A stretch of DNA of 34,666 nt, taken from NCBI GenBank assembly GCA_035529555.1, contig DATKWL010000116.1, positions 1-34,666 of the forward strand, in the 5' to 3' direction. This DNA is from Dehalococcoidia bacterium (GTDB lineage Bacteria; Chloroflexota; Dehalococcoidia; SZUA-161). The notes under the pieces were generated by a model. That model saw nothing but the letters and a program-made list of their open reading frames with translations. It was not told where the DNA came from and did not search any database. Shown here in pieces: positions 5,594-25,132 of this stretch. The position numbers were made by a program, and so were the translations under genes. Within the stretch, counting starts at the first letter, position 1, and each line of letters opens with the position of its first letter.

Positions 5594-5995
5594 CTAAAAA
5601 AATGGATTCTCAATCTTAAAACGGCGGCTGCAGGCTTGGCAGTAGACAGCGTGGGCATCAGGCTCAGCTGGGGTCTCCGCACCACAGTAGGGGCAGACGG
5701 GATACCACATATCTTCCATGGTAGCCGCCTCAAGGTTTTTCTCAGTCATAGTGACTGTCTCTTCTTCGACCTCTGGCGCCCGTATTTTTTCCGCCTCCCC
5801 CAGCGCCTTGCGGGGTATTAACTTCTGCCCTACTCCTGTGCCCAACCCTATGCCGTGACTAATAAAGTGATCCTTACACATAAATGCCCACGGCCCCATG
5901 CGAGTTTTCCCGTCATAGAGGCCTGGCCAATCACAGAAATCGCACTTTGGTAGTTCCTGCACATATGCTGTGGTGCCGCTTCTTGGATTGCCCAT
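5594..5995 (-). CDS. zinc-ribbon protein (133 aa)
   Basis: Contains CDFC...CKDH near the N-terminus and CPYC...CQAC at the C-terminus. GGAGG lies 9 nt upstream of ATG 5995. Confidence 0.65.
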   Translation of the reverse strand: MGNPRSGTTAYVQELPKCDFCDWPGLYDGKTRMGPWAFMCKDHFISHGIGLGTGVGQKLIPRKALGEAEKIRAPEVEEETVTMTEKNLEAATMEDMWYPVCPYCGAETPAEPDAHAVYCQACSRRFKIENPFF

Positions 5996-6010: not shown

Positions 6011-6061
6011 AAAAAGAAAGGAGCAAGCATTATTTTGCTCGCCCCGTTTTTATCTATTGTA
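6011..6061 (-). promoter_or_regulatory. leader hairpin copy U1 (GGGGCGAGCA/TGCTTGCTCC + U-tract) with upstream TACAAT
   Basis: The minus strand reads TACAAT..AAAAACGGGGCGAGCAAAATAATGCTTGCTCCTTTCTTTTTCGGAGG..ATG(5995). The -35 element is weak. Confidence 0.55.
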
Positions 6062-6772: not shown

Positions 6773-6820
6773 AAAAAAGGGGGCAAGCCCTTCTCAGCGA
6801 AGGTCACCTGCCCCGTTTTT
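6773..6820 (-). terminator. leader/terminator hairpin copy U2
   Basis: The minus strand reads AAAAACGGGGCAGGTGACCTTCGCTGAGAAGGGCTTGCCCCCTTTTTT, directly before the SD of gene 6076..6753. Confidence 0.65.
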
Positions 6821-6842
6821 CCGGTATTTTCCTCCCCACCTT

Positions 6843-6871
6843 ATTATTGTTTCAGAGGAGGGAATTGTCAA
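6843..6871 (-). promoter_or_regulatory. sigma70-like promoter TTGACA-17-AATAAT
   Basis: The -35 element (6866-6871) overlaps the TGA stop of gene 6868..8292. The -10 element is at 6843-6848. Confidence 0.45.
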
Positions 6872-8292
6872 CCCTGGGGTCTGCCACCGAACAAGAGCTC
6901 ATCTTCAAGGTCCTTGGCCTCTCTCTCCAACACGACGGCTTCCTTCAGTCCCTTGGAAATTTTTGCCTTCTCCTGAGGGCTTTTCCTGACTGACTCCCCG
7001 CCACCGGTTAGGCCCATCAGCACTGGTTTTACATCGGACCTGATTCCGGTGACTTGGCTGTCAACGGAGGTCATTGCCTTTTCTAACAGTGCGAAGCGCC
7101 CCTCAAGTCCCCCCCGGTTTGACATATCTTTTCGCAACTCTTCTAGCCCTTTGGCCAGATTGCCCAACGCGCCTTTCACGGCATCCAGTTCTTGCTTCTG
7201 CAGCGAGTCCTTGAGCTCCCGGACCTCCGCCTGCAGCGCTCTCATCGTTTCAGAACCTTCTCCCTCACCCGTTTTTTTCAGCATCCCCAGCTGGTTCAGC
7301 TTGTCCAGCATCTCTATCTGCGTAACTCTTCCTTCCTCCCCGGTCTTTCGCAACAGCCCCAGCTGGTCCAGCTGGGCAAGCAATGCCCCCTCGCCGCCGC
7401 CATCACCCGTTTTTTTCAACATCCCCAGCTGGTTCAGCTTGTCCAGCATCTCTATCTGCGTAGTCCTTCCTTCCTCCCCGGTCTTTCGCAACAGCCCCAG
7501 CGAGTCCAGCTGGGCAAGCAATGCCCCCTCGCCGCCGCCCTCACTCTTTTTGAGCATCCCGAGCTTGTCTAACTTGTCCAGCGTGGTCATTTCATCGTCC
7601 CCTCCTCCTGTCTTGACTCCCATTGCTTCCTTCAAGCGTACTGACGCTTCTTCTCTCCTTGCCAGCTCCTCCACCGGGTCGATTGGCTCTCCCTTCTTGA
7701 GCGAGTCCTGGTACATCTGAAACACGGCAAACTCCCCGAAGCCTATCCTGCCCTTCGGGTTAAGTGTCCACGCGCCCTGCTCACCAACGATGAAGGCGGG
7801 CTCCTTTTTATCTCCGCTCTCCCTCTCCTCTATCTCTGCCAGGTCCTTCTTTACCAGCTTCTGGAGACTCTTGGCTTCGGAGAGGCTGACGGCTTTTTCG
7901 CCTTCTTTGGCCAAGCGTATCATCCCGCTTTCAGGGTCGACGGCATATTTCTCCTCCCCTTCCTCTTCTCTGGTTTCCCTTGTCTTGACGCCAGTCTCCT
8001 TTTCCATTTTCTGCCTTAGCCTTTTGGGGATGGGATGCTGGATTTCATCCGCCCAGAAGTTTACCACCTGCGTGACAAGCGACGGATGGACCCCCATCTC
8101 ACGCATCCTTGCCTCGACATCCTCTAGGTCTTCGAGCTTGCCCTTGGCACAGTGGTCGGCAACCATCGCGGCGTTCTTAATTTTGAATTTTTGGACAATG
8201 GCGGTGAACCTATCCACAATGTTGGTGAAGCTCTCTTCGCCTGTTGGTGCCTCAGCCCCCTCTTTCCCTTTTTCTTCTGTCCCGTTGCTCAT
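6868..8292 (-). CDS. acidic Glu/Lys/Gly-rich protein with tandem 46-aa repeats (474 aa)
   Basis: AAGGAGG lies 10 nt upstream of ATG 8292. Contains an in-frame 138-bp tandem repeat at 7266-7590. Confidence 0.7.
   Translation of the reverse strand: MSNGTEEKGKEGAEAPTGEESFTNIVDRFTAIVQKFKIKNAAMVADHCAKGKLEDLEDVEARMREMGVHPSLVTQVVNFWADEIQHPIPKRLRQKMEKETGVKTRETREEEGEEKYAVDPESGMIRLAKEGEKAVSLSEAKSLQKLVKKDLAEIEERESGDKKEPAFIVGEQGAWTLNPKGRIGFGEFAVFQMYQDSLKKGEPIDPVEELARREEASVRLKEAMGVKTGGGDDEMTTLDKLDKLGMLKKSEGGGEGALLAQLDSLGLLRKTGEEGRTTQIEMLDKLNQLGMLKKTGDGGGEGALLAQLDQLGLLRKTGEEGRVTQIEMLDKLNQLGMLKKTGEGEGSETMRALQAEVRELKDSLQKQELDAVKGALGNLAKGLEELRKDMSNRGGLEGRFALLEKAMTSVDSQVTGIRSDVKPVLMGLTGGGESVRKSPQEKAKISKGLKEAVVLEREAKDLEDELLFGGRPQG
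7266..7590 (-). repeat. 138-bp tandem repeat, 2 full copies plus a partial third, in frame within CDS 6868..8292
   Basis: Copies start at 7266 and 7404 (CACCCGTTTTTTTCA(G/A)CATCCCCAGCTGG...). They are nearly identical over 138 bp. A degenerate third copy starts at 7542. Confidence 0.85.
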
Positions 8293-8503
8293 AATAGTCG
8301 TTCCTCCTTTGCCCTTCTTGCGTTAAAAGCCAGACCTTACTTCCTTCACTCCACTTTATGTTCTGGACCAAGCCCGAGTGCTTCAGCTCGCTAAGTCTAG
8401 TAGAAACCGTGGTTAGCCTGGCGCCTATATAGTTTGCGATTTGATACCGATCGGCTCTGCCTATCCGGGCCAAATATCGGACTATCGCCTCCTTTCTTCT
8501 CAT
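8252..8503 (-). CDS. winged helix-turn-helix DNA-binding protein (83 aa)
   Basis: IVRYLARIGRADRYQIANYIGARLTTVSTRLSELKHSGLV fits the MarR/ArsR-type wHTH pattern. Its basic tail overlaps the next gene by 41 nt. Confidence 0.6.
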   Translation of the reverse strand: MRRKEAIVRYLARIGRADRYQIANYIGARLTTVSTRLSELKHSGLVQNIKWSEGSKVWLLTQEGQRRNDYYEQRDRRKRERGG

Positions 8504-8862: not shown

Positions 8863-8906
8863 CTCTAATACCTCCATCGCTTTAGCTGGGGGAAGCAACC
8901 CCCGCC

Positions 8907-8954
8907 AAAAAGGAGCGGGTCAAGTTACCTTCTCGGCGAAGGCTGCTTGCCCCG
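8907..8954 (-). terminator. leader hairpin copy U3
   Basis: The minus strand reads AACGGGGCAAGCAGCCTTCGCCGAGAAGGTAACTTGACCCGCTCCTTTTT, between the minus promoter and gene 8611..8862. Confidence 0.55.
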
Positions 8955-8964
8955 TTCTTCTGCC

Positions 8965-8993
8965 TTGACAAGTTGTAAAGTTAGATTTACAAT
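8965..8993 (+). promoter_or_regulatory. sigma70-like promoter TTGACA-17-TACAAT (rightward)
   Basis: -35 at 8965-8970 and -10 at 8988-8993. Confidence 0.6.
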
Positions 8994-9019
8994 ATACCAT
9001 ATGGGACAAAGGCTGTCAA
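8991..9019 (-). promoter_or_regulatory. sigma70-like promoter TTGACA-17-TATATT (leftward)
   Basis: -35 at 9014-9019 and -10 at 8991-8996 (reverse complement). Its -10 overlaps the rightward -10. Confidence 0.6.
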
Positions 9020-9123
9020 GCGTTACTACAGTCAATAGGACAAAGCACTCGTCGGAATTTCGACGGTTGTATGTCCGAAGGGGAGAAAGGGGGGGAATTT
9101 AGCGCTGCATTAAATTAAAAGGT

Positions 9124-9195
9124 AAAAAGGCGGTCAGTTGCTGAAACGAGAGTTTTGGCTGACCGTCTTTTCTCTCTATTCAGTAACTATCCCGC
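9124..9195 (+). repeat. 72-nt leader element copy A (bulged hairpin with GAGA tetraloop + U-tract)
   Basis: 69/72 identical to 20700-20771. Outer stem 9129-37/9159-67, inner stem 9141-47/9152-58, loop GAGA at 9148-51. Confidence 0.8.
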
Positions 9196-9240
9196 ACAAA
9201 AACGGGGCAAGCGAATCAATTGCTTGCCCTTTTCTTTTTT
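9196..9240 (+). terminator. leader hairpin copy (GGGCAAGCGA/TTGCTTGCCC + TTTTCTTTTTT)
   Basis: Stem 9205-14/9220-29, loop ATCAA. One nt different from the hairpin at 16429-16453. Confidence 0.7.
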
Positions 9241-9257: not shown

Positions 9258-10064
9258 ATGAGAAAAATCGTAGTGGCTTCCATAAAGGGGGGTGTGGGGA
9301 AAACCACGGTGTCCTCAGGCTTGACACGAAGCCTCAAGAGGCTTGGGTCCAGAGTCGGCTACCTGGATGTGGACATTACCGCACCAACCGGTTCTGAGGC
9401 GTTTGGGCTGGAGAAGCCGCCCGACTGGGAACTGGATGCCGCTGCGGAAGGCGGCAGAGGGGCGATTGTCCCCTATAACGTAGAAGGCATACAGTTCATA
9501 ACACTCGCCTCACACTTCGGGCAAGCACCCGCCGTGCTGTGGAACGAAGAGAAAAAGATAGACGCCGCCAGGCAGCTGCTTCAGGGAGTGGTGGCCTGGC
9601 GGGACCTTGACTGGCTCATCCTGGATACCCCTCCCAGCTCGTCCGGCGAGATGCAAGCTCTTTACAAGTACATCACCGACCTTCACGGTGTGATACTCGT
9701 CTTTCAGCCCACTGACATGGCCGTCGCCGACCTTTATAGGACGCTTGATTTCCTCAAGTTCAAGAAGGTGGCGATACTCGGCCTGATAAGCAACATGAGT
9801 TATTGTATCTCGCCATCTGGGGAGAGGTTCTGGCCCTTCCTGTCGCCTGAGGTAGACCTCGCTGCCATCTGCGAGAATTTTGGGATTCCGCTTCTCGGCG
9901 AGATACCACTCACACCGGACAGAAAGGTGGTCGAGCAAGCATTTGACCGGATTGCCTCAAGGCTGGATGGGGCAAAGCCTGTCATCCTGAAGGAGGATAT
10001 CGCCAAGAGGCTGATCAGGGAAGGAAAAAGGAAGCTTCTGAAAGCGGCAGTAAGGAGACTGTAG
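9258..10064 (+). CDS. Mrp/NBP35 (ApbC)-family P-loop ATPase lacking the CxxC motif (268 aa)
   Basis: Has the deviant Walker A KGGVGKT, plus DVDITAP, LILDTPPSSSGE and LGLISNMSY. The N-terminal ORF extension 9138-9257 covers the leader hairpins and is rejected. Confidence 0.8.
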   Translation: MRKIVVASIKGGVGKTTVSSGLTRSLKRLGSRVGYLDVDITAPTGSEAFGLEKPPDWELDAAAEGGRGAIVPYNVEGIQFITLASHFGQAPAVLWNEEKKIDAARQLLQGVVAWRDLDWLILDTPPSSSGEMQALYKYITDLHGVILVFQPTDMAVADLYRTLDFLKFKKVAILGLISNMSYCISPSGERFWPFLSPEVDLAAICENFGIPLLGEIPLTPDRKVVEQAFDRIASRLDGAKPVILKEDIAKRLIREGKRKLLKAAVRRL

Positions 10065-10066
10065 CC

Positions 10067-10495
10067 ATGCGCACCGAAAAGACACTTGCTGAAGTTCTGA
10101 TTGACTTCGCCCTCGAGGACAAGGTAGCACACCAGGCGGTTATGGCCCAATTGCCCGCCGAGAAGATGGAGGCAATCACCGGCAGAAAAGGGAAACTGAT
10201 TGTCGACGGTGAGGAGGGTGGAGCATTTATCATCAGGATGACACCCTACGGCATCTATAGGGACAATAGCGAATCCGACCTCAGGAACGAGATATGGATG
10301 ACCGATACAACTTTTATCGACATAGTGATTGGGGAGCTTGAGCCGAAGACGGCGAGGGCTAGGGGCCAGGTGCTTTTCAGCGGTGACAGAAGCCTGTATG
10401 ACGCCGCCGAAATCATAGACATCTTTGAGAAGTGGATAATAACGAAGCTGAGGCCGGTTGCCCAAAAGATGATGAAAGCCGTTGGCAAGAGATAG
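10067..10495 (+). CDS. SCP2-like lipid-binding domain protein (142 aa)
   Basis: EIWMTDTTFIDIVIGELEPKTARARGQVLFSGD parallels the SCP2 pattern ([33 protein letters not shown]). AAGGAG SD. Confidence 0.55.
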   Translation: MRTEKTLAEVLIDFALEDKVAHQAVMAQLPAEKMEAITGRKGKLIVDGEEGGAFIIRMTPYGIYRDNSESDLRNEIWMTDTTFIDIVIGELEPKTARARGQVLFSGDRSLYDAAEIIDIFEKWIITKLRPVAQKMMKAVGKR

Positions 10496-10499
10496 CGGA

Positions 10500-10757
10500 A
10501 TGGCTTATGACCCGAATTGCTCGCTTTGCCGGAAAGAGCCGATTAAGGAGCAGCCTTATCATGATGAAATTTGCTGGGTTACATTCTGCCCTCTTCATGG
10601 GAATCCGATGATCGTTCTCAATGAGCATAGGCCGGAACCAACGCCGGAGGAGTGGGAGCACATAAAGGAGGTGAAGAATAAACTGTACCCAAACCTGAAA
10701 TTCAGAGGAGAGGGGATGCACTCTATGCCTCAGCATTTTCATGAACACCTTGTATAG
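10500..10757 (+). CDS. mini HIT-like protein (85 aa)
   Basis: Has an N-terminal CSLC, PMIVLNEHRPE, and a C-terminal HFHEHLV resembling the HxHxHxx histidine triad. The track ORF starts at TTG 10482. Confidence 0.45.
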   Translation: MAYDPNCSLCRKEPIKEQPYHDEICWVTFCPLHGNPMIVLNEHRPEPTPEEWEHIKEVKNKLYPNLKFRGEGMHSMPQHFHEHLV

Positions 10758-10759
10758 AA

Positions 10760-11425
10760 ATGATAGCTGAATTGCCCTTCGTTTTCTTAATCGCCGGGGC
10801 GGCCCTGGTTGGCCTGTGGATATCAAATATCCTCTTTGACCTAAAGGTCCCCCACTACGTCGCGCGTAAAATCGGCCACAGTGCCGGCGGGCTGGGCTTC
10901 CTGCTCTGCGCCCTATTATTTTCATCCGGGTGGTGGTCACTAATATTAGCCGCCATCTTTGCCGTCATGCTCGGGGGTGCCAGGTATGTCAGGCCCCAGA
11001 CTTTTCGTGGCGTGGGCGGCATCGGGCGGCCCGGGGAAGTGATGGCCGAGGTCTGGTTTCCCCTGGCTTCCTTGCCGGTTATCGGCGTGGGCTGGCTCTG
11101 GCTGGACAAGCCTTTGGTAGCCATATCCTGTCTTCTCTTTATGGCCTGGGGGGATATGATTACCGGAATTGTCCGCTCCCAGGTGTACGGCCGGCCAGTG
11201 AAGGGCCTGTGGGGTTCGGTGGCTATGCTCGCCACCTGCCTCGTGATCGCTTTGGCGTTTGTGCAACCGTTCTGGGTCGGGGCCGTGGCTGCCTTGGTGG
11301 CCACGGCTACCGAATGGGCCTGCGGGGATGTTGGGGTCATAAAATGCCTGGACGACAACCTGATGATACCGCTGACCAGCTTTGTCACTGTTTTCGGGAT
11401 ACTGGCTTTGATAGGGGAGCTATGA
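10760..11425 (+). CDS. polyprenol/phytol/dolichol kinase-like integral membrane protein (221 aa)
   Basis: Multi-TM protein. WGDMITGIVRS, KGLWGSVAM and DDNLMIPL match the CTP-dependent polyprenol kinase / CdsA superfamily pattern. Confidence 0.6.
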   Translation: MIAELPFVFLIAGAALVGLWISNILFDLKVPHYVARKIGHSAGGLGFLLCALLFSSGWWSLILAAIFAVMLGGARYVRPQTFRGVGGIGRPGEVMAEVWFPLASLPVIGVGWLWLDKPLVAISCLLFMAWGDMITGIVRSQVYGRPVKGLWGSVAMLATCLVIALAFVQPFWVGAVAALVATATEWACGDVGVIKCLDDNLMIPLTSFVTVFGILALIGEL

Positions 11426-11904
11426 GGGAACTGCTAACATTGCCCAATCCCATACTCAGGAAGAAGTGCCATCCGGTTGGCAACTTCAACAAAGAAATTA
11501 AGGAACTCATAGAAGAGTTGGCTGGTTATATGTATGCCCACCGCACCGATGAAATCGCCCCGATTGGGCTCACGGCCCCGCAACTTGGCGAATCCCTTCA
11601 GGTGATAGTCTTTTACCCCAACCCGGCCTTCCGGGAGAAGAAAGGGATAGAGGAGCTTATCAATCCGGAACTTGTCTATGCCAGAGAATCGATTACAGTT
11701 ACCGAGTCTTGCCTGAGCCTTCCGGGTAAAACATATACTCTCCAACGGGCAAAGCTGGTGAAGGTTCGAGGATACAACTTTGACGGACGCAAGAGGACAT
11801 ACAAAGCCAGGGCGCTCTTTGCCCAAATGTTTCAGCACGAACTAAATCACCTCGATGGCATACTCATAGACAGAATCGGAGAGCTTATCGTATTTAGGAA
11901 GTAG
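11422..11904 (+). CDS. def: peptide deformylase (160 aa)
   Basis: Has the three PDF motifs IGLTAPQLG, ESCLSLPG and QHELNHLDG. ATGA overlap with the upstream stop. The track ORF 10930..11904 is a spurious extension. Confidence 0.85.
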   Translation: MRELLTLPNPILRKKCHPVGNFNKEIKELIEELAGYMYAHRTDEIAPIGLTAPQLGESLQVIVFYPNPAFREKKGIEELINPELVYARESITVTESCLSLPGKTYTLQRAKLVKVRGYNFDGRKRTYKARALFAQMFQHELNHLDGILIDRIGELIVFRK

Positions 11905-11915
11905 AAGGAGAGGCA

Positions 11916-12803
11916 ATGAAAGATAAAATTAAAGCTCACATCGGGCTGGGGCGATTCTTCGCCCTGCCCATAGTTGTCTGCTCCGTCCTGCTTGGCGTTG
12001 CCCTCGTAGGTCACTGGAGCTGGCTATCTGCCATGGTGGCTCTCGGGGCCATATTCCAGATGGCCTATGCACACAGCTTTAACACGCTGCTGGATTTTTC
12101 CTGGACCGGGTTTGACAAGGGTGCTGAAGAGGAGCGGAGCCGAGGTAAGGTCTATACCCATGGCCAGCAGACGATAGCCGCCGGCATAATGTCCCCCAAA
12201 GAGGTGCTGGCCAACGGCCTTGTCTACCTTGCTATATCGGCTGTCTTCATCGGCATTGTCGCCTGGAAGGTATCACCGGTAATATGGATTATCTGGGCGA
12301 CTACAGCCTTGATGACGTTCTGGTATAGCTGGGGGAAGCTTCATTATCAGTGTGAGCTGGCACTGGGTATCGGCTTCGGCTCGCTGGCGGTGATGATGGG
12401 TATGGCCACCCAGCCGAACCCGGATTTCCTGCTGGCTTTTCTGGCGGGGATACCAATATTAATTTTGTTTGGATACGGGGCGGAGACAATGGATCAGTTC
12501 GCCGATGCGAGCGTGAATTGGAAGAGGGGATTGAGAAACTTCGGTGCCCTGGTGTGGAGAAACAAAGTCTCAATTACCATGTTCATCGTCTGGCTGCTTT
12601 GCGCCACCTTTCTCTCCCAGCTGTTTCTCATCGCCGCTGGAGTATTGCATCCGCTGACGGCACTAACACTCATCACCCTCATTCCCTTTTCTTTTTGCCT
12701 TCTCTTCCTGGAGATGAAACCCAAAGTCGGCATCATCTGGGGGCTGGGCGGAATTTATTTATATGGACTGCTACTACTGCTCGGGGAGGTACTTGGACGA
12801 TAA
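11916..12803 (+). CDS. UbiA-superfamily-like membrane prenyltransferase (295 aa)
   Basis: About 8-9 TM segments. Divergent Asp-rich motifs NTLLDFSWTGFD and DQFADASVNWKRG. GAAGGAGAGG SD. Confidence 0.55.
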   Translation: MKDKIKAHIGLGRFFALPIVVCSVLLGVALVGHWSWLSAMVALGAIFQMAYAHSFNTLLDFSWTGFDKGAEEERSRGKVYTHGQQTIAAGIMSPKEVLANGLVYLAISAVFIGIVAWKVSPVIWIIWATTALMTFWYSWGKLHYQCELALGIGFGSLAVMMGMATQPNPDFLLAFLAGIPILILFGYGAETMDQFADASVNWKRGLRNFGALVWRNKVSITMFIVWLLCATFLSQLFLIAAGVLHPLTALTLITLIPFSFCLLFLEMKPKVGIIWGLGGIYLYGLLLLLGEVLGR

Positions 12804-12826
12804 ATCCAAAGGTAAAAATAATATCC

Positions 12827-13849
12827 ATGGGCTATGCTGTCCCCGAGCATAGCTACAGTCAGGAAGAAGTATTCCAGGTGCTCGGGTACCCGCAGCGCTT
12901 CTGGAGGGTGTTCAAAGAGAGTGGGATTGAGAAGAGGCACCTTTGGGTACCGCCATGCGAAGCTAAGGAGATCAGCTGGCAGCAACAGCAGGAGATATAC
13001 AGGGTTGGGGCCGTAAAGCTTTCCCTGCAGGCGGTAAAAGAGTGTCTAGACAGCCGGAGCGCCGAGGATATCGCCTGCGTTGTCTATGGGAGTTGCACAG
13101 GATTTACCCCGGGACCGACGATAGCCCACTACCTGGCCAAAGAGTTATCTCTTGAACCCTCGACCTATTATACGAACATAATCGGGCAGGGATGCGAATC
13201 AGGCTTCCCCGGGCTCCGGAGAGCCTACGATTTTGCTGTAGCCACAGGAAAGCAAGCCCTGGTTGTCAACTGCGAGCTCTGCTCATGCACTTACTATCCC
13301 GAGCCTGCCGGCAGACCGGACCCTGAGAATCATTTTGAATGCTTGAGGAGCAATGCCATCTTTGCCGATGCTGCCTCCTGTGTTCTGGTGGGGTTTGATG
13401 AGAACCTGCGGCATCCTTCTATAATTGACATGGAGACACATACCAATACCGACTTCATCAATGAGCTCGGCTATACCTGGCGGTATGGCCGGCTAAGAGT
13501 TATGTTGTCGCGGCGGGTACCGGAACTGGCGCCACTGGTGGTTAAGCCGGCTGTCAATGCCGTGCTGCAGCGCCAGGGACTAAGTATTGACGACATAAGA
13601 TGGTGGGTGATCCACGCGGCTGGCAGCACAGTCTTGGACAACATAAGGGATGCACTTGGCATAGCCGAGGAAAAGGTAACTCTCTCGAGGGAAACATTGA
13701 GAAATTTTGGCAACACCAGCTCAACCTCGGTCGGCATTACCGGGAAGAGATTGATGGCGGGAGATATCCACCATGGAGATTATGCGGCGGTTTTGAGTAT
13801 CGGACCCGGCATGAGCGGCGGCATGACTCTCTTGCGCTTCGGAGGTTGA
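12827..13849 (+). CDS. type III polyketide synthase (chalcone-synthase-like, 340 aa)
   Basis: Cys-His-Asn triad contexts GQGCESG, WVIHAAGS and FGNTSSTS. The first ATG after the upstream stop is taken as start; the track extension overlaps the UbiA gene. Confidence 0.85.
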   Translation: MGYAVPEHSYSQEEVFQVLGYPQRFWRVFKESGIEKRHLWVPPCEAKEISWQQQQEIYRVGAVKLSLQAVKECLDSRSAEDIACVVYGSCTGFTPGPTIAHYLAKELSLEPSTYYTNIIGQGCESGFPGLRRAYDFAVATGKQALVVNCELCSCTYYPEPAGRPDPENHFECLRSNAIFADAASCVLVGFDENLRHPSIIDMETHTNTDFINELGYTWRYGRLRVMLSRRVPELAPLVVKPAVNAVLQRQGLSIDDIRWWVIHAAGSTVLDNIRDALGIAEEKVTLSRETLRNFGNTSSTSVGITGKRLMAGDIHHGDYAAVLSIGPGMSGGMTLLRFGG

Positions 13850-13850
13850 A

Positions 13851-14291
13851 GTGAGACTGCGAGATGCCCTGGCCAGCTTGCCTGATATAGACCACGAGAT
13901 TATTGACTGGTTGGCTGAAATAAATAGCTACAAGGGAGTATGCACCCTGAACTCATGTGCCGGACACAATAACCACTACAATCAACCATTTGTGATCCTG
14001 GCATTCTCCAAGGGCAGCCCCTTTCACAAGTTCTGCCACGAGATATCACCGGTGAGGTCTGATGTTAGTCCTGTGCTGACTCTGTTTTCTGACAAAGGCT
14101 GGGTAGCAGTATTTCCTCCAACAAAAGATATTAGTGTTGAACAAGGTAGCGGAGTAACACCAGAACGCTTGCCGACTGTTAGAAGGGACCTGTTTGAACG
14201 TATCATAGCAACACTGGAGAAGGTGATAGAAAGGAAGGCGAGTGTGAAGGAGATCGAGCGAAAAATAAAGGTGCTGGGGAGGGGGCTATAA
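13851..14291 (+). CDS. hypothetical protein (146 aa)
   Basis: GTG start with GGAGG 5 nt upstream. No family recognised. Confidence 0.55.
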   Translation: MRLRDALASLPDIDHEIIDWLAEINSYKGVCTLNSCAGHNNHYNQPFVILAFSKGSPFHKFCHEISPVRSDVSPVLTLFSDKGWVAVFPPTKDISVEQGSGVTPERLPTVRRDLFERIIATLEKVIERKASVKEIERKIKVLGRGL

Positions 14292-15224
14292 ATGGCAGTA
14301 TTGGTAACGGGGGGCACCGGGACGCTTGGTCGGGAGCTGGTTCACAATCTAGTCGCCAGAGGGCAAAAGGTAAGGATTCTGGCCAGAGACACTAAGAAGG
14401 CAGAGGAGCTTTTCAGCGGTTTGGAGATACTAAAGGGCAATGTCACCGAGGACAATCTTGGCCTGGTGGCTAATCCCCATGTTGATGCAGTATACCACCT
14501 GGCCGGTTTTCTTGACCTGAGTGAGAAACATCGAGACGACTTGTGGAACGTCAATGTCGCCGGCACGCAAAATGTCATCAAGCTCATGAAACTTTATGAG
14601 ATCCCCCACCTTTATTATTGTTCAACTGCATATACCCAGGGAAGGAACTGCTATGAGGAGACCAAAGCCACGGCCGAGAATTGGGTCAGGGAATCGGGCG
14701 TCAAGTACTCCATCTTTAAGCCCGGCATCATCGTCCCCAACTCCAGAACCTTCGAGATTGATAAGCCACAGCACCTTTATCTGGCGGCCAGGTTATGGGC
14801 CAGGCTCCACCGCCGGGCAGAGCCAATCAGGAAAAAATTAGAGAATAAACTTAATCTACCACCCAAGCAAATTAGCTGCCGGATAAAGGGTAACCCCAGT
14901 GCCACCTTGAACCTAGTTCAGGTTGACTGGATAGCAGAAAAAATGGCCAGCGTCCAGGACGAAGGCGTCTACATGCTCACCAGCCAAAGGCCGCTAAGGG
15001 TTTCTAAACTGCTGGAGTGGCTTGGTGAGGTCCTGTTTCTAAACCTCAAAGTGGAGCCTGAGTTCAAGCTGAGGCCACACGAGGCTTTATTTGACCGCCT
15101 GGCCAAGCCGTTCTTGGACTACGTACAAGATGATTTTTCCCGCTTTAAGCACTCATTCAATGACTGCCCTGCCATCAGCCGGGAATTTATTCAAAAGACA
15201 GTTATCAATAGTATTTTAAATTGA
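14292..15224 (+). CDS. NAD(P)-dependent extended SDR (epimerase/reductase family, 310 aa)
   Basis: VLVTGGTGTLGRELV Rossmann motif and a YEETK (YxxxK) motif. Confidence 0.8.
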   Translation: MAVLVTGGTGTLGRELVHNLVARGQKVRILARDTKKAEELFSGLEILKGNVTEDNLGLVANPHVDAVYHLAGFLDLSEKHRDDLWNVNVAGTQNVIKLMKLYEIPHLYYCSTAYTQGRNCYEETKATAENWVRESGVKYSIFKPGIIVPNSRTFEIDKPQHLYLAARLWARLHRRAEPIRKKLENKLNLPPKQISCRIKGNPSATLNLVQVDWIAEKMASVQDEGVYMLTSQRPLRVSKLLEWLGEVLFLNLKVEPEFKLRPHEALFDRLAKPFLDYVQDDFSRFKHSFNDCPAISREFIQKTVINSILN

Positions 15225-15249
15225 CTAACCCGCCCTAAGGGTTTAGAAT
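15221..15249 (+). promoter_or_regulatory. sigma70-like promoter TTGACT-17-TAGAAT without a downstream hairpin
   Basis: The -35 element overlaps the TGA stop of the SDR gene. The SD and ATG 15272 follow within about 20 nt. Confidence 0.55.
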
Positions 15250-15271
15250 TTTCAGCAAGGAGGGGCTTCTA

Positions 15272-15595
15272 ATGGTTATGGGGCAAGGCAAAGGTCTTCT
15301 GTCAGAGCTTGAAAGGAAATTGGGATTACCGCCGCTTTCCCAGGTCGCCGAAACCTTACAGAAATTTCCCGATATGCCAAGGCTGCGCCTGATCAAAAAC
15401 ATCCTTGAGGCCTGCGAGCGCCTTTCTCGCACCGCGCCCGAGCTGGAAAAGATTGTCACCCTGGTCAACCTGATTGCCGATACCCCTACCGATAGGCTGG
15501 AGAAGCTGGAGAAGATCCTGAAGCAGGCAAACAAGCTGGTGGCACATGCCCCGAATGGGCTGCTTGAGTTTCTGTCCTCTTTGAAGGAGGATTGA
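15272..15595 (+). CDS. hypothetical helical protein (107 aa)
   Basis: AAGGAGGGG SD. First gene after the hairpin-less promoter. Confidence 0.6.
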   Translation: MVMGQGKGLLSELERKLGLPPLSQVAETLQKFPDMPRLRLIKNILEACERLSRTAPELEKIVTLVNLIADTPTDRLEKLEKILKQANKLVAHAPNGLLEFLSSLKED

Positions 15596-16378: not shown

Positions 16379-16407
16379 TTGACCTTCTCAAAATTCTAGT
16401 TTACAAT
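16379..16407 (+). promoter_or_regulatory. sigma70-like promoter TTGACC-17-TACAAT
   Basis: Starts immediately after the TAG stop at 16376-78. Confidence 0.6.
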
Positions 16408-16418
16408 TGGTGAAAAGG

Positions 16419-16464
16419 CAGAAAAATGGGGCAAGCAAATCAATTGCTTGCCCTTTTCTTTTTT
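16419..16464 (+). terminator. intrinsic-terminator-like hairpin between promoter and RBS
   Basis: Stem 16429-38/16444-53 (10 bp), loop ATCAA, then TTTTCTTTTTT at 16454-64. Confidence 0.7.
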
Positions 16465-16477
16465 GGTGAGGTTGTAA

Positions 16478-16807
16478 ATGACAGTTAGCCAAGACTGCCT
16501 AGAGAAAGCCTACCACATTTACGAAGCCCATGAATGTGCCCACGCTGCATCGAGGGAAGCACTAAGCCGGGATAAAAAGTCTGCCGAGATGTATTTGAAC
16601 CTGATAAATCAGCACTTATATGCCGCGGATGCTTCACTTTCACCGGAGACTAAAATGGAATTGAATCGTGATCTGGCAGAAGCAAGAAAGTTGATTTACC
16701 AGGATGATAAAAATGCCGTCTTCTCGCTAGGTCGCTTTCTGGATAAGACGAAGGAATTGATGTTTGAAGTCGCCGTGGCCTGCGAGTGCCGGAAAGGAGG
16801 GCAATGA
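16478..16807 (+). CDS. helical Cys-motif paralog (109 aa, C-terminal ACECR)
   Basis: GGTGAGG lies 6 nt upstream. Same Cys pattern as three minus-strand genes. Confidence 0.6.
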   Translation: MTVSQDCLEKAYHIYEAHECAHAASREALSRDKKSAEMYLNLINQHLYAADASLSPETKMELNRDLAEARKLIYQDDKNAVFSLGRFLDKTKELMFEVAVACECRKGGQ

Positions 16808-17191: not shown

Positions 17192-19699
17192 ATGGAACGA
17201 GCTGAACTGGCTGACGCACCAGAAATCGCAACGATAGAAATAACAGAACCTCTTCCTGAGAGCGGGGTCGTTGACAGCACCTACAAGATTAAAGGCTCAG
17301 TCAAAATGTTTGATGCCATAGGCGCCCCACCCTGGGTTTACGCCGAGGTTAGGTTAAAGGAGTGGGACAAGCCGGAGGTTGCTGAGGAGGTCAGTTACGA
17401 GCGCGGCTTTCCCATGCCGATAACCGGTGAATTTACCATTGAGTTCAAGCCGGAGAAAGAGGGAGATTACGAAATTACTGTTCTGGCTACCCCAGCACCT
17501 TTATCCCTACCCGTCATCGGGGTATTCCCGGTCACCGGCAAGAGCGATGTAATGAAGGTTGCCGTTGGCGAAAGGCCGCCAGCGGTGTTCAGATTCTCGG
17601 ACGTAACGATTGACGAGAATGATATAGCGCTTACCGACCACGATGCTGATTCCGGATTGCTGCTGGAGAAAACCACGGCCGATTATCTGGACATAACCCC
17701 GGCCTTTGAGTGGACGGGTCCCAGCAAGAAGGCCACTGTAAGCATAAAGGCCGGATACAGGGATTGGCTCGGTGCTTTTAGCCCCAAGACGGGGGCTTAT
17801 ACGCGCACCATTACGCTGCCTGAATCACCTACTACTCCCTATTCCGGCGAACTTGAAAGCCCGATAAGGATTCCACTTACCGCCTGCAGCGGCATTACCG
17901 ATGGCGCCATAGAGATGGTGCTCAAGATAGCCAGGGAGCCCGACTACATCAGTCGTATCTGGAACGTCTACGCCACCAAAGCTCCGCCTGAAGCGTTAGA
18001 CTTCGATTTAACAAGGCCTAGCGTCTCCCAAACCCCCGTAGACCCGGGAACCATCATAGACATCACTTGCCCCATTACCTCGAGGTGCGAGAAGGCGGTT
18101 GATGCCCGTGCCAAGGTCATTATCTATGAGGGGTCAGCTCTTCCCGGTCATGGTAGTAAGATTAAGCAATACGATAGCGATGTGTTCCATATAGAGCCGA
18201 ACGAGAGCACAAATGTCGTTGTCCACCACACGGCAGTCAAGGGCACCATAGACAGGCGGGATGTGGAGGTGGAGGTATACGTTGACACGCAGCTGGTCAA
18301 GGAGAGCGAGTGGGATGACGTGTTCTACGTCGGTGTACCGCCAGAAGAGGTAATCGACTTTAACCTGACAAGACCCACAGTTACTCCAGCGGAAATCGCT
18401 CCGGGAACACCTATCACGATAACGTGCCCGGTGACCTCGGCCTGCACCAAGGAGCAAACGGCCACCGCTCAGGTTAAGATTTATGAAGGCAGTTTTTATG
18501 CCGGCCACGGGACCCTGATAACCACCAAGAATTCACCAGCCTTCTCCATAGCACCAGGCCAGGCTTATAATGTCATCGTTCAACACACCGCTATAGCCGG
18601 CACAATTGACCGTCGTGATGTTGAGGTTGAGATTTATATCGGTGGCAAGCTGGTCAAGGAGAGCGAGTGGGATGATATTTACTATGTAATTATCCCCCCC
18701 CCACCACCCGTGCCTCCCACATCTGATATTAGGAACTTTGACTTTCAGCCAGTGAAGGGCACTTATGATGTTGGAGACAGAGTATCCTATAGTGCCCCCT
18801 ACGAATACAAGGGCAAGGCTCAAGGCGGCTGGCTGACAATCTACCTCGGCACAGGAGTGTATCCCTATTTCTCTATCAAGCATACCTACCCCAGGACTGC
18901 GGTAAGTTTTGGTGAGGCGATGGACTGGACATTGGGCCAATTGTCAGGAAACTTCCTCCTGCCAAGCACACTGGTGCCCGGCCAGACATACAATGTCAGG
19001 GCTAAATTAGAGACTGCTGATGGCAAGCAGATAATTGACACCGACTGGGGAGTGATTACCATCCCCGAGATAACACCGCCTCCACCGCCTGTGCCACCCG
19101 CGGCGGACATCAGGAATCTCGACCTTGTGGCCACCAAGGGCACCTATGACATTGGCGACAGAGTGCCATTCACTTGCAATTATGAATACAAGGGAAAGGC
19201 GCAAGGCGGCCATCTTGTCCTTTCACTGGGCACCGGCGTATATCCAACCTTCAGCACGGTGGTAAACTACTACCCGATGCCAGTCAGCTTCGACGAGGCG
19301 ATGGACTGGACCCGGCGCAGTTTTACGGGAACTTTCCTTTTGACTGAAGCCCTTAATCCCGGGCGGACCTATAACACCAGAGCCAAGCTGGAAACTCTAG
19401 ATGACCGCACGAAGGAAACCGACACCGACTGGGAGGTGGTGAGAATACAGGAAGCGGCACCTCCCGGAGAATATACCGTTTTTGTCCTAGCGCTGCCCCT
19501 TGCTGCCGGATGGGTCACCAAGGAGCCGGATAAGGACTCATACGCTTATGGCGAAACGGTGAAGCTGACCGCCATGAGCGCCCCCGGCTACAAGTTTTCT
19601 TACTGGCAAGTTGACGGCGAGTGGGCGGGCTATAGCAGCACCCTGACCCTCATGGTAACCACGGATCTCGAAGTGAGAGCGTATTATACAAAGGTGTAG
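17192..19699 (+). CDS. large multi-domain repeat protein, candidate virion or surface protein (835 aa)
   Basis: GGGGAGG SD. Has an internal 118-aa repeat x2 (aa 265-501) and a 127-aa repeat x2 (aa 502-755), each B copy preceded by PPPPPVPP. The C-terminal approx 80 aa fit the InlB B-repeat-like pattern (YGETVKLTAMSAPGYKFSYW). No signal peptide. Confidence 0.8.
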   Translation: MERAELADAPEIATIEITEPLPESGVVDSTYKIKGSVKMFDAIGAPPWVYAEVRLKEWDKPEVAEEVSYERGFPMPITGEFTIEFKPEKEGDYEITVLATPAPLSLPVIGVFPVTGKSDVMKVAVGERPPAVFRFSDVTIDENDIALTDHDADSGLLLEKTTADYLDITPAFEWTGPSKKATVSIKAGYRDWLGAFSPKTGAYTRTITLPESPTTPYSGELESPIRIPLTACSGITDGAIEMVLKIAREPDYISRIWNVYATKAPPEALDFDLTRPSVSQTPVDPGTIIDITCPITSRCEKAVDARAKVIIYEGSALPGHGSKIKQYDSDVFHIEPNESTNVVVHHTAVKGTIDRRDVEVEVYVDTQLVKESEWDDVFYVGVPPEEVIDFNLTRPTVTPAEIAPGTPITITCPVTSACTKEQTATAQVKIYEGSFYAGHGTLITTKNSPAFSIAPGQAYNVIVQHTAIAGTIDRRDVEVEIYIGGKLVKESEWDDIYYVIIPPPPPVPPTSDIRNFDFQPVKGTYDVGDRVSYSAPYEYKGKAQGGWLTIYLGTGVYPYFSIKHTYPRTAVSFGEAMDWTLGQLSGNFLLPSTLVPGQTYNVRAKLETADGKQIIDTDWGVITIPEITPPPPPVPPAADIRNLDLVATKGTYDIGDRVPFTCNYEYKGKAQGGHLVLSLGTGVYPTFSTVVNYYPMPVSFDEAMDWTRRSFTGTFLLTEALNPGRTYNTRAKLETLDDRTKETDTDWEVVRIQEAAPPGEYTVFVLALPLAAGWVTKEPDKDSYAYGETVKLTAMSAPGYKFSYWQVDGEWAGYSSTLTLMVTTDLEVRAYYTKV

Positions 19700-20658: not shown

Positions 20659-20688
20659 TTGACAAATTTCTGTCCCTGTGTTTAGAAT
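20659..20688 (+). promoter_or_regulatory. sigma70-like promoter TTGACA-18-TAGAAT with an AT-rich upstream tract
   Basis: -35 at 20659-64 and -10 at 20683-88. The sequence AAAAATAAACTAAATAAAAAC lies upstream. Confidence 0.6.
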
Positions 20689-20699
20689 TGTAGCGGGAT

Positions 20700-20771
20700 A
20701 AAAAGGCGGTCAGTTGCTGAGACGAGAGTTTTGGCTGACCGCCTTTTCTCTTTATTCAGTAACTATCCCGC
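20700..20771 (+). repeat. 72-nt leader element copy B
   Basis: Outer stem 20705-13/20735-43, inner stem 20717-23/20728-34, loop GAGA at 20724-27, followed by TTTTCTCTTT. Confidence 0.8.
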
Positions 20772-20777
20772 CCGCTC

Positions 20778-20835
20778 AAAAACGGGGCAAGCAACCTTCC
20801 CCGGAAGGTTTGAACGGCTTGCCCCGTTCCTTTTT
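20778..20835 (+). terminator. leader hairpin copy (CGGGGCAAGC ... GCTTGCCCCG with inner ACCTTC/GAAGGT stem + U-tract)
   Basis: Outer stem 20783-92/20817-26, followed by TTCCTTTTT. Confidence 0.65.
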
Positions 20836-20872
20836 GGTGAGGGTTGCTTCCCCAGAGTAAAAGGAGGGTGAC

Positions 20873-21187
20873 ATGCCTAATAAGCTTCCGGAGCCAACAA
20901 CTATTATTAGTGCCTTAGGAGGCGGAGCTATTGATCTGGCCGAGGGGCCGGTAATAGCTGCCATCAACACCGCCGGAGTCGCCCAGGAATTTGCCAATAA
21001 TGTCAAAGGTAACCTTGACAACCTCAAGAAGGGGATACCCCAAGACCCGTCAGCTATACCTGATTTTGCGGTGAGGGCAGTCACGCACACGATTTCTGAC
21101 GGCTTGGGTTTCTTCGAGGGCCTCGGCAAAGCGGCAACGCAAACTTTTGAAAGTGTCCGCGGTGAGCTCAGGAGAATCACAGGTTAA
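20873..21187 (+). CDS. hypothetical protein, N-terminal MPNKLPEP (104 aa)
   Basis: AAAAGGAGGG SD. First gene after the double-hairpin leader. Confidence 0.6.
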   Translation: MPNKLPEPTTIISALGGGAIDLAEGPVIAAINTAGVAQEFANNVKGNLDNLKKGIPQDPSAIPDFAVRAVTHTISDGLGFFEGLGKAATQTFESVRGELRRITG

Positions 21188-21550: not shown

Positions 21551-22309
21551 ATGGCTGAAATTGTTGGGCCAGCATTTGCAAAACTAAATCTGATGGCAGG
21601 CACCGCCAGACTTCTGGAGCAAGTAGACCTAAAGCCAGACGACTTAATGGTCTTCAATAGAGACTTCGACCTGCTTGTGAAGGAGCTGTCAAAGGTTGAC
21701 CCTGAGTTGGGGCACAATCTGGCTGCCGAAAAAGAGTTTTACCTCGGTGTCAACCAGATAGCCAAAGGCTACTTCAACATGAAGCCCTTTGGCGGATTAA
21801 AGTCTTCAACCGGGCAATATGGTATGAACATCATTTCGCCCCAGAATCTGAAGACTGATGCAGCCGGCGCAACCCGCCGATATTTGAGCTGGGCGCAGAC
21901 GCTTAGCGTCACCATTAGCGGCACCCATCAGTTTATACTTGGGACTTCTGCTACTGCAGAGTGCTATGCCTCTGCTGAAAGTGAGAAGAAGGAAGTTATT
22001 GGCTTTCACGCCTTCCTCAGCTATAAGCCGGACCCGAAGCTCGTTCTGCTCCACTTGGAAATCAATGATTACCCCTATCCTACCTGGAATGTGGAGCCAT
22101 ATGCCAAGATTACCAAGGCCGATAAGCTATTCAAGATTCTGCCTATTCCCGGTCGAGTAATCCTGCATCCGGGTGGCAAGTTCGCCCTTCAGGGTTTCTT
22201 CGACATCGGCAGCAGCATGGCCGCCGCGGTTTCTGTTGACGTTGAGATATGTCCATTTGGCCTTTGCTTTGCCGAATACGACCAGTTTGAATCCAGCAAC
22301 ATACACTAA
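21551..22309 (+). CDS. hypothetical protein, candidate major structural subunit (252 aa)
   Basis: AGGAGGAGG SD. Largest ORF of the module. No family recognisable by eye. Confidence 0.6.
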   Translation: MAEIVGPAFAKLNLMAGTARLLEQVDLKPDDLMVFNRDFDLLVKELSKVDPELGHNLAAEKEFYLGVNQIAKGYFNMKPFGGLKSSTGQYGMNIISPQNLKTDAAGATRRYLSWAQTLSVTISGTHQFILGTSATAECYASAESEKKEVIGFHAFLSYKPDPKLVLLHLEINDYPYPTWNVEPYAKITKADKLFKILPIPGRVILHPGGKFALQGFFDIGSSMAAAVSVDVEICPFGLCFAEYDQFESSNIH

Positions 22310-24466: not shown

Positions 24467-25132
24467 ATGGGTTCCTGGGAACGGCAGAAAGTAAAGGAAA
24501 ACAGAGTACTCTTATCTACTATCTCTCCCCCTGATGGAAAGGTTTCATATCAATGGGCAAGAAGCTGGAGGGAGCTCCAATTACCCCAAGAGTCGGATAA
24601 CTTGATTGTGCAGGGCCTGCCTTACGGCGTTGCTAGGAATTACGCGGTGAAACAGTTACTGGAACAGGGGTTCAGCTGGCTCTTCTTCCTCGACAGTGAC
24701 ATCACTCTGCCACCCAACGCAGTGATGCGACTGCTGGAAACCAAACTGCCCCTGATAGGCTGTTATTATACCCACCGTTTCCCCCCTTACGAGCCTTGTT
24801 TCTACGGAGCTAAGCAGGATGAGCAAGGGAAAATCCAAAAGGTTGCCCTTACCGGGTGGAATTTCGGGGATATTGTGCCGTCTGTATTTTTGCCGGGTGG
24901 TGCTTGCCTGATTCATCGTTGTGTGTTTGAAAGGATGTCGGCGGCAGGGATTAGGAAGTGGTATGAATGGACGCTCGATGTAGATGAACCAATAGGGATT
25001 TCAGAGGATTACTCGTTCTCGTTAAAAGCTTATTCATTGGGGATTACCCCCATGGCGCATACAGGAATCCAAGCTCGCCATGAATGCCTCGCTACCTGCG
25101 GGGTGAGAGGAATAGAGGCAGTAACGCAATGA
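24467..25132 (+). CDS. GT-A fold glycosyltransferase-like protein (221 aa)
   Basis: FFLDSDITLPPNAV (DxD) and SEDYSF. AAGGAG SD. Confidence 0.7.
   Translation: MGSWERQKVKENRVLLSTISPPDGKVSYQWARSWRELQLPQESDNLIVQGLPYGVARNYAVKQLLEQGFSWLFFLDSDITLPPNAVMRLLETKLPLIGCYYTHRFPPYEPCFYGAKQDEQGKIQKVALTGWNFGDIVPSVFLPGGACLIHRCVFERMSAAGIRKWYEWTLDVDEPIGISEDYSFSLKAYSLGITPMAHTGIQARHECLATCGVRGIEAVTQ

Follow-up and report, generated by a model that had tools for sequence, protein, structure and literature searches.

What does a 72-nt element, present in two nearly identical copies, do upstream of two operons in contig DATKWL010000116.1 of a Dehalococcoidia bacterium? An earlier note on this DNA had described the element as a bulged hairpin capped by a GNRA loop and had regarded it as a functional RNA and not just a DNA repeat. 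Here, we analysed the whole stretch of 34,666 nt (hereafter, the window) together with related metagenomic contigs. The structural part of the answer is strongly supported: the element has two alternative folds, it is conserved, and it lies in the leaders of operons. As for its function, we tentatively read it, with a confidence that stops a little short of even, as a cis-acting structured leader RNA, i.e., a promoter-proximal attenuator whose read-through RNA would refold into a long helix.

The two copies in the window

The repeat search of the window retrieved positions 9123-9195 and 20699-20771 as a 73-nt pair sharing 96% identity (70/73); within it, the two copies of the element match at 69/72 positions, which agrees with the earlier count. 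A 37-nt core pattern, allowing up to three mismatches, occurs in the window at these two sites only, whereas shuffled sequences are expected to contain 0. The element (HP1) and its two folds, named Fold A and Fold B, map as follows:

9124-9195, plus strand: copy 1 (HP1), from repeat search and folding
9124-9128, plus strand: A-tract of copy 1
9129-9167, plus strand: Fold A hairpin of copy 1, with outer stem 9129-9137/9159-9167 and bulge 9138-9140
9141-9147/9152-9158, plus strand: inner stem of copy 1, with loop 9148-9151
9168-9177, plus strand: U/pyrimidine tract of copy 1, followed by the tail at 9179-9195
9130-9133:9192-9195, 9136-9145:9179-9188 and 9148-9152:9172-9176, plus strand: Fold B pairs of copy 1
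20700-20771, plus strand: copy 2 (HP1), with Fold A hairpin 20705-20743, U/pyrimidine tract 20744-20753 and tail 20755-20771

In Fold A, both copies form an outer stem GGCGGTCAG/CTGACCG(T/C)C, a 5' UUG bulge, an inner stem CUGA(A/G)AC/GUUUUGG and a GAGA loop; a T-rich tract and then the tail ATTCAGTAACTATCCCGC follow on the 3' side. Their folding z-scores are -4.96 (copy 1) and -4.34 (copy 2), and 0/200 shuffles fold as well. The hairpin is thus as the earlier note had drawn it; however, when the 72 nt of copy 1 are folded alone, the minimum free energy (MFE) structure is not this hairpin but a long helix that uses the tail.

The two copies differ at three positions. An A/G difference in the inner stem changes A-U to G.U, and a T/C difference in the outer stem changes G.U to G-C, so that both stem substitutions keep pairing, as previously claimed. 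The third, a C/T difference in the pyrimidine tract, changes G-C to G.U in Fold B and keeps that pair as well. All three substitutions are neutral in Fold A and Fold B alike.

Further copies and conservation of the hairpin

Contigs were fetched via homologues of the 252-aa and 109-aa proteins encoded in the window, and were searched with a covariance model built on the hairpin. Seven further distinct versions were found on syntenic metagenomic contigs which, with the two window copies, make nine:

L009, 9160-9246: copy of the element
L024, 4003-4089: copy of the element
L015, 9109-9193: copy of the element
L021, 5075-5159: copy of the element
L029, 1970-2055: copy of the element
L030, 9139-9221: copy of the element
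L031, 9173-9258: very divergent copy, scoring 24.6 bits in the covariance model versus 61-105 for the other copies

Promoters, here and below, are sigma-70-like sites predicted from sequence. All seven further copies have a conserved TTGACA-17/18-TAGAAT-type promoter, start 14-19 nt past its -10 hexamer and are followed, in this order, by a second hairpin (T2, described below), a box, a Shine-Dalgarno (SD) sequence and an ATG. Every covariance-model match above E = 0.01 lies on the strand of the gene, in the leader between promoter and SD. Hence, the copies are not scattered at random: each of them has the same orientation, with a sigma-70-like promoter before it and the first gene of an operon after it.

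In the model-fitted alignment of the nine versions, 98.6% of the Fold A cells are paired and 9/16 pairs are altered on both sides, a figure that 0/500 shuffles reach; in slid controls, the paired fraction is 31-53%. RNAalifold independently recovers Fold A, adding pairs between the A-tract and the U-tract. Compensatory variants of the outer stem include GGUCAG/CUGACC, GGGUAG/CUACCC, GGGCAG/CUGACC and GGGGUGAC/GUCACCCC. The hairpin has a GGCGG/CCGCC base, a stem of 16-19 bp and an energy of -24 to -34 kcal/mol, and its G.U pairs make it 4-10 kcal/mol weaker on the complementary strand. The compensatory changes, together with this strand asymmetry, indicate that Fold A is an RNA structure of the plus strand. 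The earlier proposal of a functional RNA is therefore borne out: the substitutions found in the additional versions maintain the hairpin through changes on both sides, and the plus strand is favoured.

Two parts of the hairpin region are variable. The loops read GAGA, GAGGA, AUAAGA, AUGAGA, GUAAGA, CAAGA and GAUAA (4-6 nt), and this variation removes the argument for a GNRA loop of the boxB kind. On the 3' side of the stem, six copies have the tract UUUUCUCU(C/U)U; it reads UUACUCUUU in both L021 and L030 and UGUUAUCCC in L031.

As for the other contigs, L008, from the same population as the window, begins within copy 2, at model position 44 (L008 1-44; window 20739-20780); an assembly break of this kind is a usual sign of a repeat. 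Contigs L010-L012 start at similar places upstream. In the more distant L013 and L014, whose 252-aa protein is 53% identical, leader hairpins are absent from either site.

The extended helix formed with the tail

Downstream of the hairpin, all copies have a segment complementary to the 5' half of the element, and the resulting Fold B and Fold A are mutually exclusive. In the window, Fold B consists of the helices GCGG:CCGC, AGUUGCUGAA:UUCAGUAACU and GAGAG:CUCUC, the last one joining the loop purines to the pyrimidine tract; the corresponding helices of L015 are GGGUAGUUGCUG:CAGCAAUUACCC and AAGAG:CUCUU. L031 holds both folds with a wholly different sequence (GGGUGAcAAUCU:AGAUUaUCACCC and GGGAUAAC:GUUAUCCC). 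The helix is about 19-23 bp long in the element, and its stability is about equal on both strands.

Fold B is the MFE structure, or is at most 0.2 kcal/mol away from it, in 7/9 copies. When only the tail was shuffled, z-scores ranged from -2.0 to -6.5; at most 6/1000 shuffles do as well in eight of the nine copies (0/1000 for L031 and L029), and 47/1000 in L030. Moreover, 92.7% of the Fold B cells are paired in the eight close copies, versus 32-66% in slid controls. Support for Fold B thus comes from conservation and complementarity statistics, from the divergent L031 and from the T2 paralogues, the covariation being contributed by L031 and the paralogues only.

These data change the meaning of two features. 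The tail is conserved, as the earlier note had it, but its pairing with the 5' arm had been missed, as had the paralogous T2 modules. Similarly, the conserved AGAG is better explained by its pairing with CUCU in Fold B than as a GNRA loop. The "conserved tail" and the "GNRA loop" would then be parts of the alternative helix and not protein-binding features.

A wider family of leader modules

A second terminator-like hairpin (T2), AAAAACGGGGCAAGC...GCTTGCCCC followed by a U-tract, lies 8-10 nt after each window copy of the element, and is in turn followed by an SD and the first gene of the operon. A full T2 module has two arms on either side of an inner hairpin; an A-tract precedes the 5' arm, and the 3' arm is followed by a U-tract and a box GGUUGC(n)CCCC. 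Complementarity links the box to the 5' arm, and the U-tract to the purine strand of the inner hairpin. The module downstream of copy 2 is organized as follows:

20778-20853, plus strand: full T2 module, with A-tract 20778-20782, terminator fold at about 20781-20828, inner hairpin 20793-20810 and U-tract 20827-20835
20841-20853, plus strand: T2 box GGGTTGCTTCCCC, which pairs back to the 5' arm in an extended helix of about 25 bp
20863-20868, plus strand: SD downstream of the module, with the ATG at 20873

The box, located between the T2 U-tract and the SD, occurs in the window at 20841-20853 and 8908-8893 (minus strand), as well as in leaders of L009, L015, L021, L024, L029, L030, L031, L034 and L036.

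The covariation of T2 was evaluated on 11 distinct sequences, using a MAFFT alignment that was not fitted to any structure. For the terminator fold, 90% of the cells are paired and six pairs are altered on both sides; for the extended fold, the values are 88.7% and 12 pairs, and in both cases 0/500 shuffles reach the observed figure. The extended fold (about 25 bp) is the MFE structure in 11/11 sequences, being 7.6-22.3 kcal/mol more stable than the terminator fold. Folding of successive prefixes of three full leaders showed that the terminator hairpin is the best structure while the U-tract is being made, and the extended helix once the box exists. The prefixes of L015 also show an alternative pairing, between the first module's tail and the second module's box.

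The 72-nt element is a paralogue of this commoner module and has the same two-state design. The two module types are linked by L036, whose single leader hairpin has GGCGGGUAGC/GCUACCCGCC as its outer stem, as does the L009 element. In each operon, modules of this family lie downstream of a sigma-70-type promoter and upstream of the ribosome-binding site that serves the first gene. Leaders with T2 and without the element also exist (window 16379-16464, both minus-strand leaders, L034 and L036).

The cassette formed by the element, T2 and the box (about 180 nt) appears in L024 (3962-4175) as a clean insertion between the -10 hexamer TTTAGAAT and the SD AAGGAGGGGCT. Its promoter is the one at the end of the epimerase gene; in the window, the same promoter and SD are found at 15221-15272 with nothing between them. 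The presence or absence of the cassette at the same promoter implies that it modulates expression and is not required for it.

We also considered the tail as an antiterminator of T2; this was ruled out, since its pairing with the T2 5' arm amounts to only 3-5 bp. Complementarity between the T2 box and the SD is weak and inconsistent.

Promoters and leaders of the window

In a consensus scan of the window, strong sigma-70-like promoters were found at 8965-8993, 15221-15249, 16379-16407 and 20659-20688 on the plus strand and at 9019-8991 and 6871-6843 on the minus strand, plus a weaker one near 6056 (minus strand). A terminator-like hairpin follows 6/7 of these inspected promoters; that at 15221 alone has a bare leader. 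The remaining features are the following:

8965-8993, plus strand: promoter TTGACA-17-TACAAT, which most likely drives the copy 1 leader, no better promoter lying nearer copy 1
9198-9240, plus strand: simple T2-type hairpin with A-tract and U-tract, between copy 1 and the ParA/NUBPL-like gene (ATG at 9258)
16379-16464, plus strand: third plus-strand leader, with promoter TTGACC-17-TACAAT at 16379-16407 and a simple T2-type hairpin at 16428-16454 plus U-tract, without the 72-nt element
20659-20688, plus strand: promoter TTGACA-18-TAGAAT, kept in all relatives
8874-8966, minus strand: leader with a full T2 module (terminator-type fold and GGGGGTTGCTTCCCCC box), downstream of promoter 9019-8991
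6775-6871, minus strand: leader with promoter TTGACA-17-AATAAT and a T2-type hairpin with inner hairpin and U-tract, upstream of a 225/243-aa gene
6011-6051, minus strand: leader with a simple T2-type hairpin right after a TACAAT -10 hexamer, upstream of gene 5594-5995

The hairpin of copy 2 starts 16 nt past the -10 hexamer of its promoter. Copy 1 precedes a gene for a ParA/NUBPL-type ATPase (9258-10064; PF10609, E = 1e-42), followed by genes for a peptide deformylase, a UbiA prenyltransferase, a type III polyketide synthase (PKS) and an epimerase. Copy 2 precedes a gene for a 104-aa protein and then genes for proteins without a family match. In the MFE folds of this last leader (window 20863-20895, L009 and L015), the SD of the 104-aa gene (GGAGG) is paired with CUUCC of codons 5-6 (AAGCUUCCGGAGCC, encoding the conserved KLPEP), a predicted pairing that may represent an SD-sequestering hairpin.

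A further observation concerns the promoters at 8965-9019, which are near-consensus, stand face to face and have their -10 regions in common (TTGACA-17-TACAAT on the plus strand; TTGACA-17-TATATT with a TG extension on the minus strand). RNA polymerase probably occupies one of them at a time, and the pair may act as a switch between the leftward operon, which encodes a 95-aa protein, a winged-helix 83-aa protein and a 474-aa repeat protein, and the rightward ParA/lipid operon.

A possible mode of action

According to the attenuator reading, Fold A would form first and cotranscriptionally. Its GC-based bulged hairpin, with an A-tract on one side and a U-rich tract on the other, has the shape of an intrinsic terminator and would be the sole fold available while the polymerase is on the U-tract, so that a fraction of the polymerases might stop at the hairpin. 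After read-through, the 5' arm would find a new partner in the segment beyond the U-tract, and purines of the loop or inner stem would pair with the pyrimidine tract; the longer helix thus produced (Fold B) would dissolve the terminator hairpin. Terminated and read-through RNAs would, in this way, carry different structures, and the long helix could represent either a processing site (e.g., for RNase III) or a stabiliser of the mRNA 5' end. Since the competitor lies beyond the U-tract, it cannot be a classical antiterminator for its own polymerase; its effect must fall on the read-through RNA.

Several points weigh against this reading. Termination is predicted from the shape of the hairpin alone. 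The presence of a terminator-like hairpin after 6/7 promoters, including that of the operon of the putative regulator, would need either leaky terminators or an antiterminator. Copy 1 is not at the 5' end, the start predicted for the 8965 promoter being about 125 nt upstream of it. In the eight close copies, the covariation of Fold B is non-significant (two pairs altered on both sides, a number that 61/500 shuffles reach), and the alignments behind the covariation of both folds of the element were fitted to the model, which biases them towards structure. Lastly, the U-tract is weak in L021 and L030 and poor in L031, an erosion suggesting that the activity under conservation may be something other than termination; the first U of the tract has become C in L021 and L030, jointly with an A to G change in the A-tract, which points to selection on pairing and not on the U-run.

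A broader version of the same idea, which we consider unlikely, is that these leaders represent an undescribed class of modular, self-resolving terminators, each stopping some polymerases and being erased by a downstream anti-arm once it has been read through, with the HP1 and T2 tandem, through the alternative tail-box pairing, adopting two global states. Such states could be used by some other factor, or by the short terminated RNA acting in trans, to switch the two operons together.

Alternative explanations

A first alternative, which we consider unlikely, is that the element is a 5'-proximal hairpin for mRNA stabilisation or processing, with no role in termination, in which the U-tract pairs with the A-tract and/or enhances translation from its place upstream of the SD. 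The hairpins would either shield the 5' end against 5'-dependent RNases or be cleaved by RNase III. Stable 5' stem-loops on the late mRNAs of phage T7 and stabilisers of the ompA type are precedents for it. The hairpins of most leaders lie close to the predicted start site, beginning 7-12 nt from it. L021 and L030 show covariation between A-tract and U-tract (A-U to G-C), and their U-tracts, like that of L031, are eroded; in some leaders (L009 2740-2800), the U-tract abuts the SD. Moreover, the extended helices have the length that RNase III substrates require. However, this explanation does not account for the compensatory upkeep of a terminator-type fold beside a U-run when a stabler extended helix is available; most modules have canonical terminator geometry, and copy 1 is not near the 5' end.

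The second alternative is a put-like (or EAR/conAn2-like) antiterminator RNA, which would bind its own polymerase in cis and make it read through T2 and later terminators, as the earlier note had suggested among other possibilities. The location fits: two similar copies of about 72 nt, one just past a promoter and the other some 125 nt beyond a second one, with a strong terminator-like hairpin directly after each copy. This layout matches that of putL/putR of HK022 (PMC9378689), and RNA-only antiterminators are located upstream of terminators in conjugative plasmids (conAn2; PMC8191782). The architecture does not fit: the defining two stem-loops in a V are absent, all nine copies being either one bulged hairpin with a tail or one long helix. 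In addition, the element carries a terminator-like U-tract of its own, its paralogy and common two-state design with T2 argue for the same function as T2 and not for an opposing one, and T2 leaders lacking the element exist. The primary sequence of L031 is almost wholly replaced, which is unexpected for an RNA that docks on the polymerase. Finally, the whole window gave 0 hits in Rfam 15 at the gathering score, and at E <= 10 the best match around copy 2 was one of 22 bits to STnc40 (cut-off 45) on the opposite strand. Altogether, we regard a put-like function as distinctly unlikely. The RfaH ops sequence (GGCGGTAGnnTG) was also considered, since the arm reads GGCGG(G)TAGTTG in relatives; no match was found at the elements. 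A leader peptide was also rejected: a TTG-initiated open reading frame (ORF) runs through both window copies, but loop indels of 1-2 nt in the relatives shift the frame, and the peptides are not conserved.

It is highly unlikely that the element is the source or target of a small RNA acting in trans, i.e., that an RNA of about 55 nt with its 3' end at the first U-tract, or a processed piece of the leader, binds the complementary arm, segment B or tail in nascent leaders of both operons and couples their termination, in the manner of the P4 CI RNA with seqA/seqC. It is true that the arm is complementary to two segments (segment B and the tail), that the same sequences occur in two operon leaders, which in principle allows pairing in trans, and that a promoter, a hairpin and a U-tract together have the shape of a small RNA gene. 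Nevertheless, the complementary partners are all in cis and strongly paired, there is no exposed and conserved single-stranded seed (the loops vary), and most relatives are known to carry one copy only.

A feature acting at the DNA level, either an inverted-repeat operator or a mobile repeat resembling repetitive extragenic palindromes (REP) or miniature inverted-repeat transposable elements (MITE), appears very improbable. In its favour are the inverted repeats beside promoters, the small winged-helix protein encoded nearby (8252-8503; HTH_Crp_2, E = 2e-5, below the Pfam cut-off), the presence or absence of the cassette at one site between relatives and the similar stability of Fold B on the two strands. 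On the other hand, G.U pairs make up three of the seven or eight in the inner stem, Fold A is less stable by 4-10 kcal/mol on the opposite strand, and several nested helices covary, which an operator would not need. REP/MITE behaviour would imply many copies in both orientations, at places with no relation to operon starts; what was found is only two copies in 34.7 kb, all in leaders, with one orientation relative to the downstream gene and a fixed distance from the promoter, and with neither terminal inverted repeats nor target duplications.

Finally, the nut/boxB analogy drawn in the earlier note, i.e., a hairpin offering a GNRA loop to an N-like antiterminator protein, is hardly credible in spite of the GAGA tetraloop of both window copies and the terminators downstream, given that the loop is conserved in neither sequence nor length (4-6 nt), that the stem is far longer than that of boxB, that the boxA-like motif CGCTCTTTA (up to one mismatch) has eight matches in the window, a number that chance would give, all of them more than about 460 nt away from both copies, and that no N-like protein (and no Q-like or NusG-like one) was found in the ORFs scanned with Pfam.

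The replicon and its proteins

We refer to the replicon as an uncharacterised, uncultivated bacterial mobile element or virus. That its host is a bacterium is supported by its sigma-70 promoters, SD sites and peptide deformylase gene. The replicon is known only from metagenomes of sediment and soil, in which contigs identical or nearly identical to the window occur. Megablast with a 12-kb query found no match in phage or plasmid collections, and the strict pattern of the element retrieved nothing from IMG/VR contigs or GTDB genomes; one match of a looser core pattern in viral contigs falls within coding sequence and was discarded as due to chance.

The 252-aa protein (21551-22309), encoded downstream of copy 2, has more than 120 homologues, all metagenomic. 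Searches of IMG/VR with this protein and with the 109-aa one retrieved nothing, and a search of GTDB species-representative genomes with both retrieved two short contigs only, from metagenome-assembled genomes (a Dehalococcoidales bin and a Heimdallarchaeota bin). The model of the 252-aa protein (predicted local distance difference test score of 75) consists of an N-terminal helical region and a beta-sandwich, with weak jelly-roll-like matches to VP2 of infectious bursal disease virus and to a capsid protein of a single-stranded DNA virus (TM-score <= 0.32, E of about 1e-3). These matches are too weak to support the protein as a capsid or the locus as viral, and no phage hallmark gene was found at the locus. 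The 109-aa protein is 99% identical between the window (16478-16807) and L015 (4967-5296), whereas the 252-aa protein, 5 kb away, is about 58% identical; this difference points to mosaic genomes and recent recombination within the family.

Biosynthetic genes occupy 9258-15224 and 24467-33800. They encode a ParA/NUBPL-type ATPase, an SCP2-like protein (weak hit), a peptide deformylase, UbiA, a type III PKS, NAD-dependent epimerases/reductases, a cytidylyltransferase-PfkB fusion, a radical SAM/SPASM protein, a thiamine pyrophosphate enzyme, a short-chain dehydrogenase/reductase, methyltransferases and a zinc-dependent alcohol dehydrogenase; about 25 small ORFs without a family match stand beside them.

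Two proteins contain internal repeats. Gene 6868-8292, on the minus strand, encodes a 474-aa protein without a family match and contains, at 7257-7582, a 138-nt tandem duplication (95% identical, with units of about 66-72 nt) that encodes repeats of the form LDKLNQLGMLKKTGEGG; the versions in close relatives are 427-428 aa long. The 835-aa protein (17192-19699) has internal repeats of about 380 nt (18291-19438) and a C-terminal domain resembling the InlB B-repeat (PF18998), and its length varies from 752 to 913 aa among relatives.

Comparison with known systems

No described family matches these leaders; what is new is the two-state design and the membership of the element in a wider family of leader modules. 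Single aspects of it can be compared with several known systems.

In HK022, putL and putR are about 70 nt long and similar in sequence, putL following PL closely and putR lying about 270 nt away from the start of PR, and put RNA forms two stem-loops arranged in a V (PMC9378689). The element resembles them in its size of about 70 nt, its two similar copies, and its position downstream of promoters and upstream of terminators. It differs in having one hairpin or one long helix instead of the two stem-loops of put RNA, which clasps the zinc-binding domain of beta', in its terminator-like U-tract and in the little primary sequence kept across relatives.

The immunity system of phage P4 relies on the CI RNA and on seqA, seqB and seqC, one leader segment being, like the arm of the element, complementary to two others in the same leader, and these pairings controlling premature termination. 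That system acts in trans through a processed stable RNA, and the order of its segments differs from that of the element. In the hok mRNA of plasmid R1, metastable 5' hairpins that form early, during transcription, are later replaced by a stabler fold-back (tac/fbi) pairing with sequence transcribed after them; hok, however, concerns the translation and antisense control of a toxin mRNA over hundreds of nt, and lacks terminator geometry.

Attenuators and the expression platforms of riboswitches have, like the leaders described here, mutually exclusive 5'-leader helices, one of which is an intrinsic terminator or, in the leaders described here, a terminator-like hairpin. When the element itself is compared with an intrinsic terminator, the GC-rich hairpin is present and is kept with compensatory changes, and the tract directly 3' of it varies among the copies. 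In classical attenuators, the competitor lies upstream of the terminator or overlaps its 5' arm, and can pre-empt it; here, it is downstream of the U-tract, and the only conserved competitor (pyrimidine tract plus tail), lying 3' of the hairpin, cannot form before the 3' arm of the terminator.

The last comparison is with tI/sib of phage lambda, in which a terminator hairpin is contained within a longer helix whose distal strand lies past the U-tract, and the read-through RNA is cleaved by RNase III. The extended pairing of the element also needs sequence past the U-tract, and terminated and read-through RNAs would likewise differ. The differences are that sib is located 3' of the gene it regulates and extends the same hairpin, whereas the modules described here lie in 5' leaders and their long helix would dissolve the hairpin. 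If the attenuator reading is correct, these leaders would represent a compact and portable way of coupling a transcription stop with a structural mark on the read-through RNA, and would add an unannotated structured RNA family, without an Rfam entry, to those known. This, in turn, would provide a testable model for operon expression in elements that carry genes for lipid and sugar biosynthesis and many proteins of unknown function, with the logic of lambda sib placed at the 5' end and repeated at nearly every operon of a mobile element or virus from sediments.

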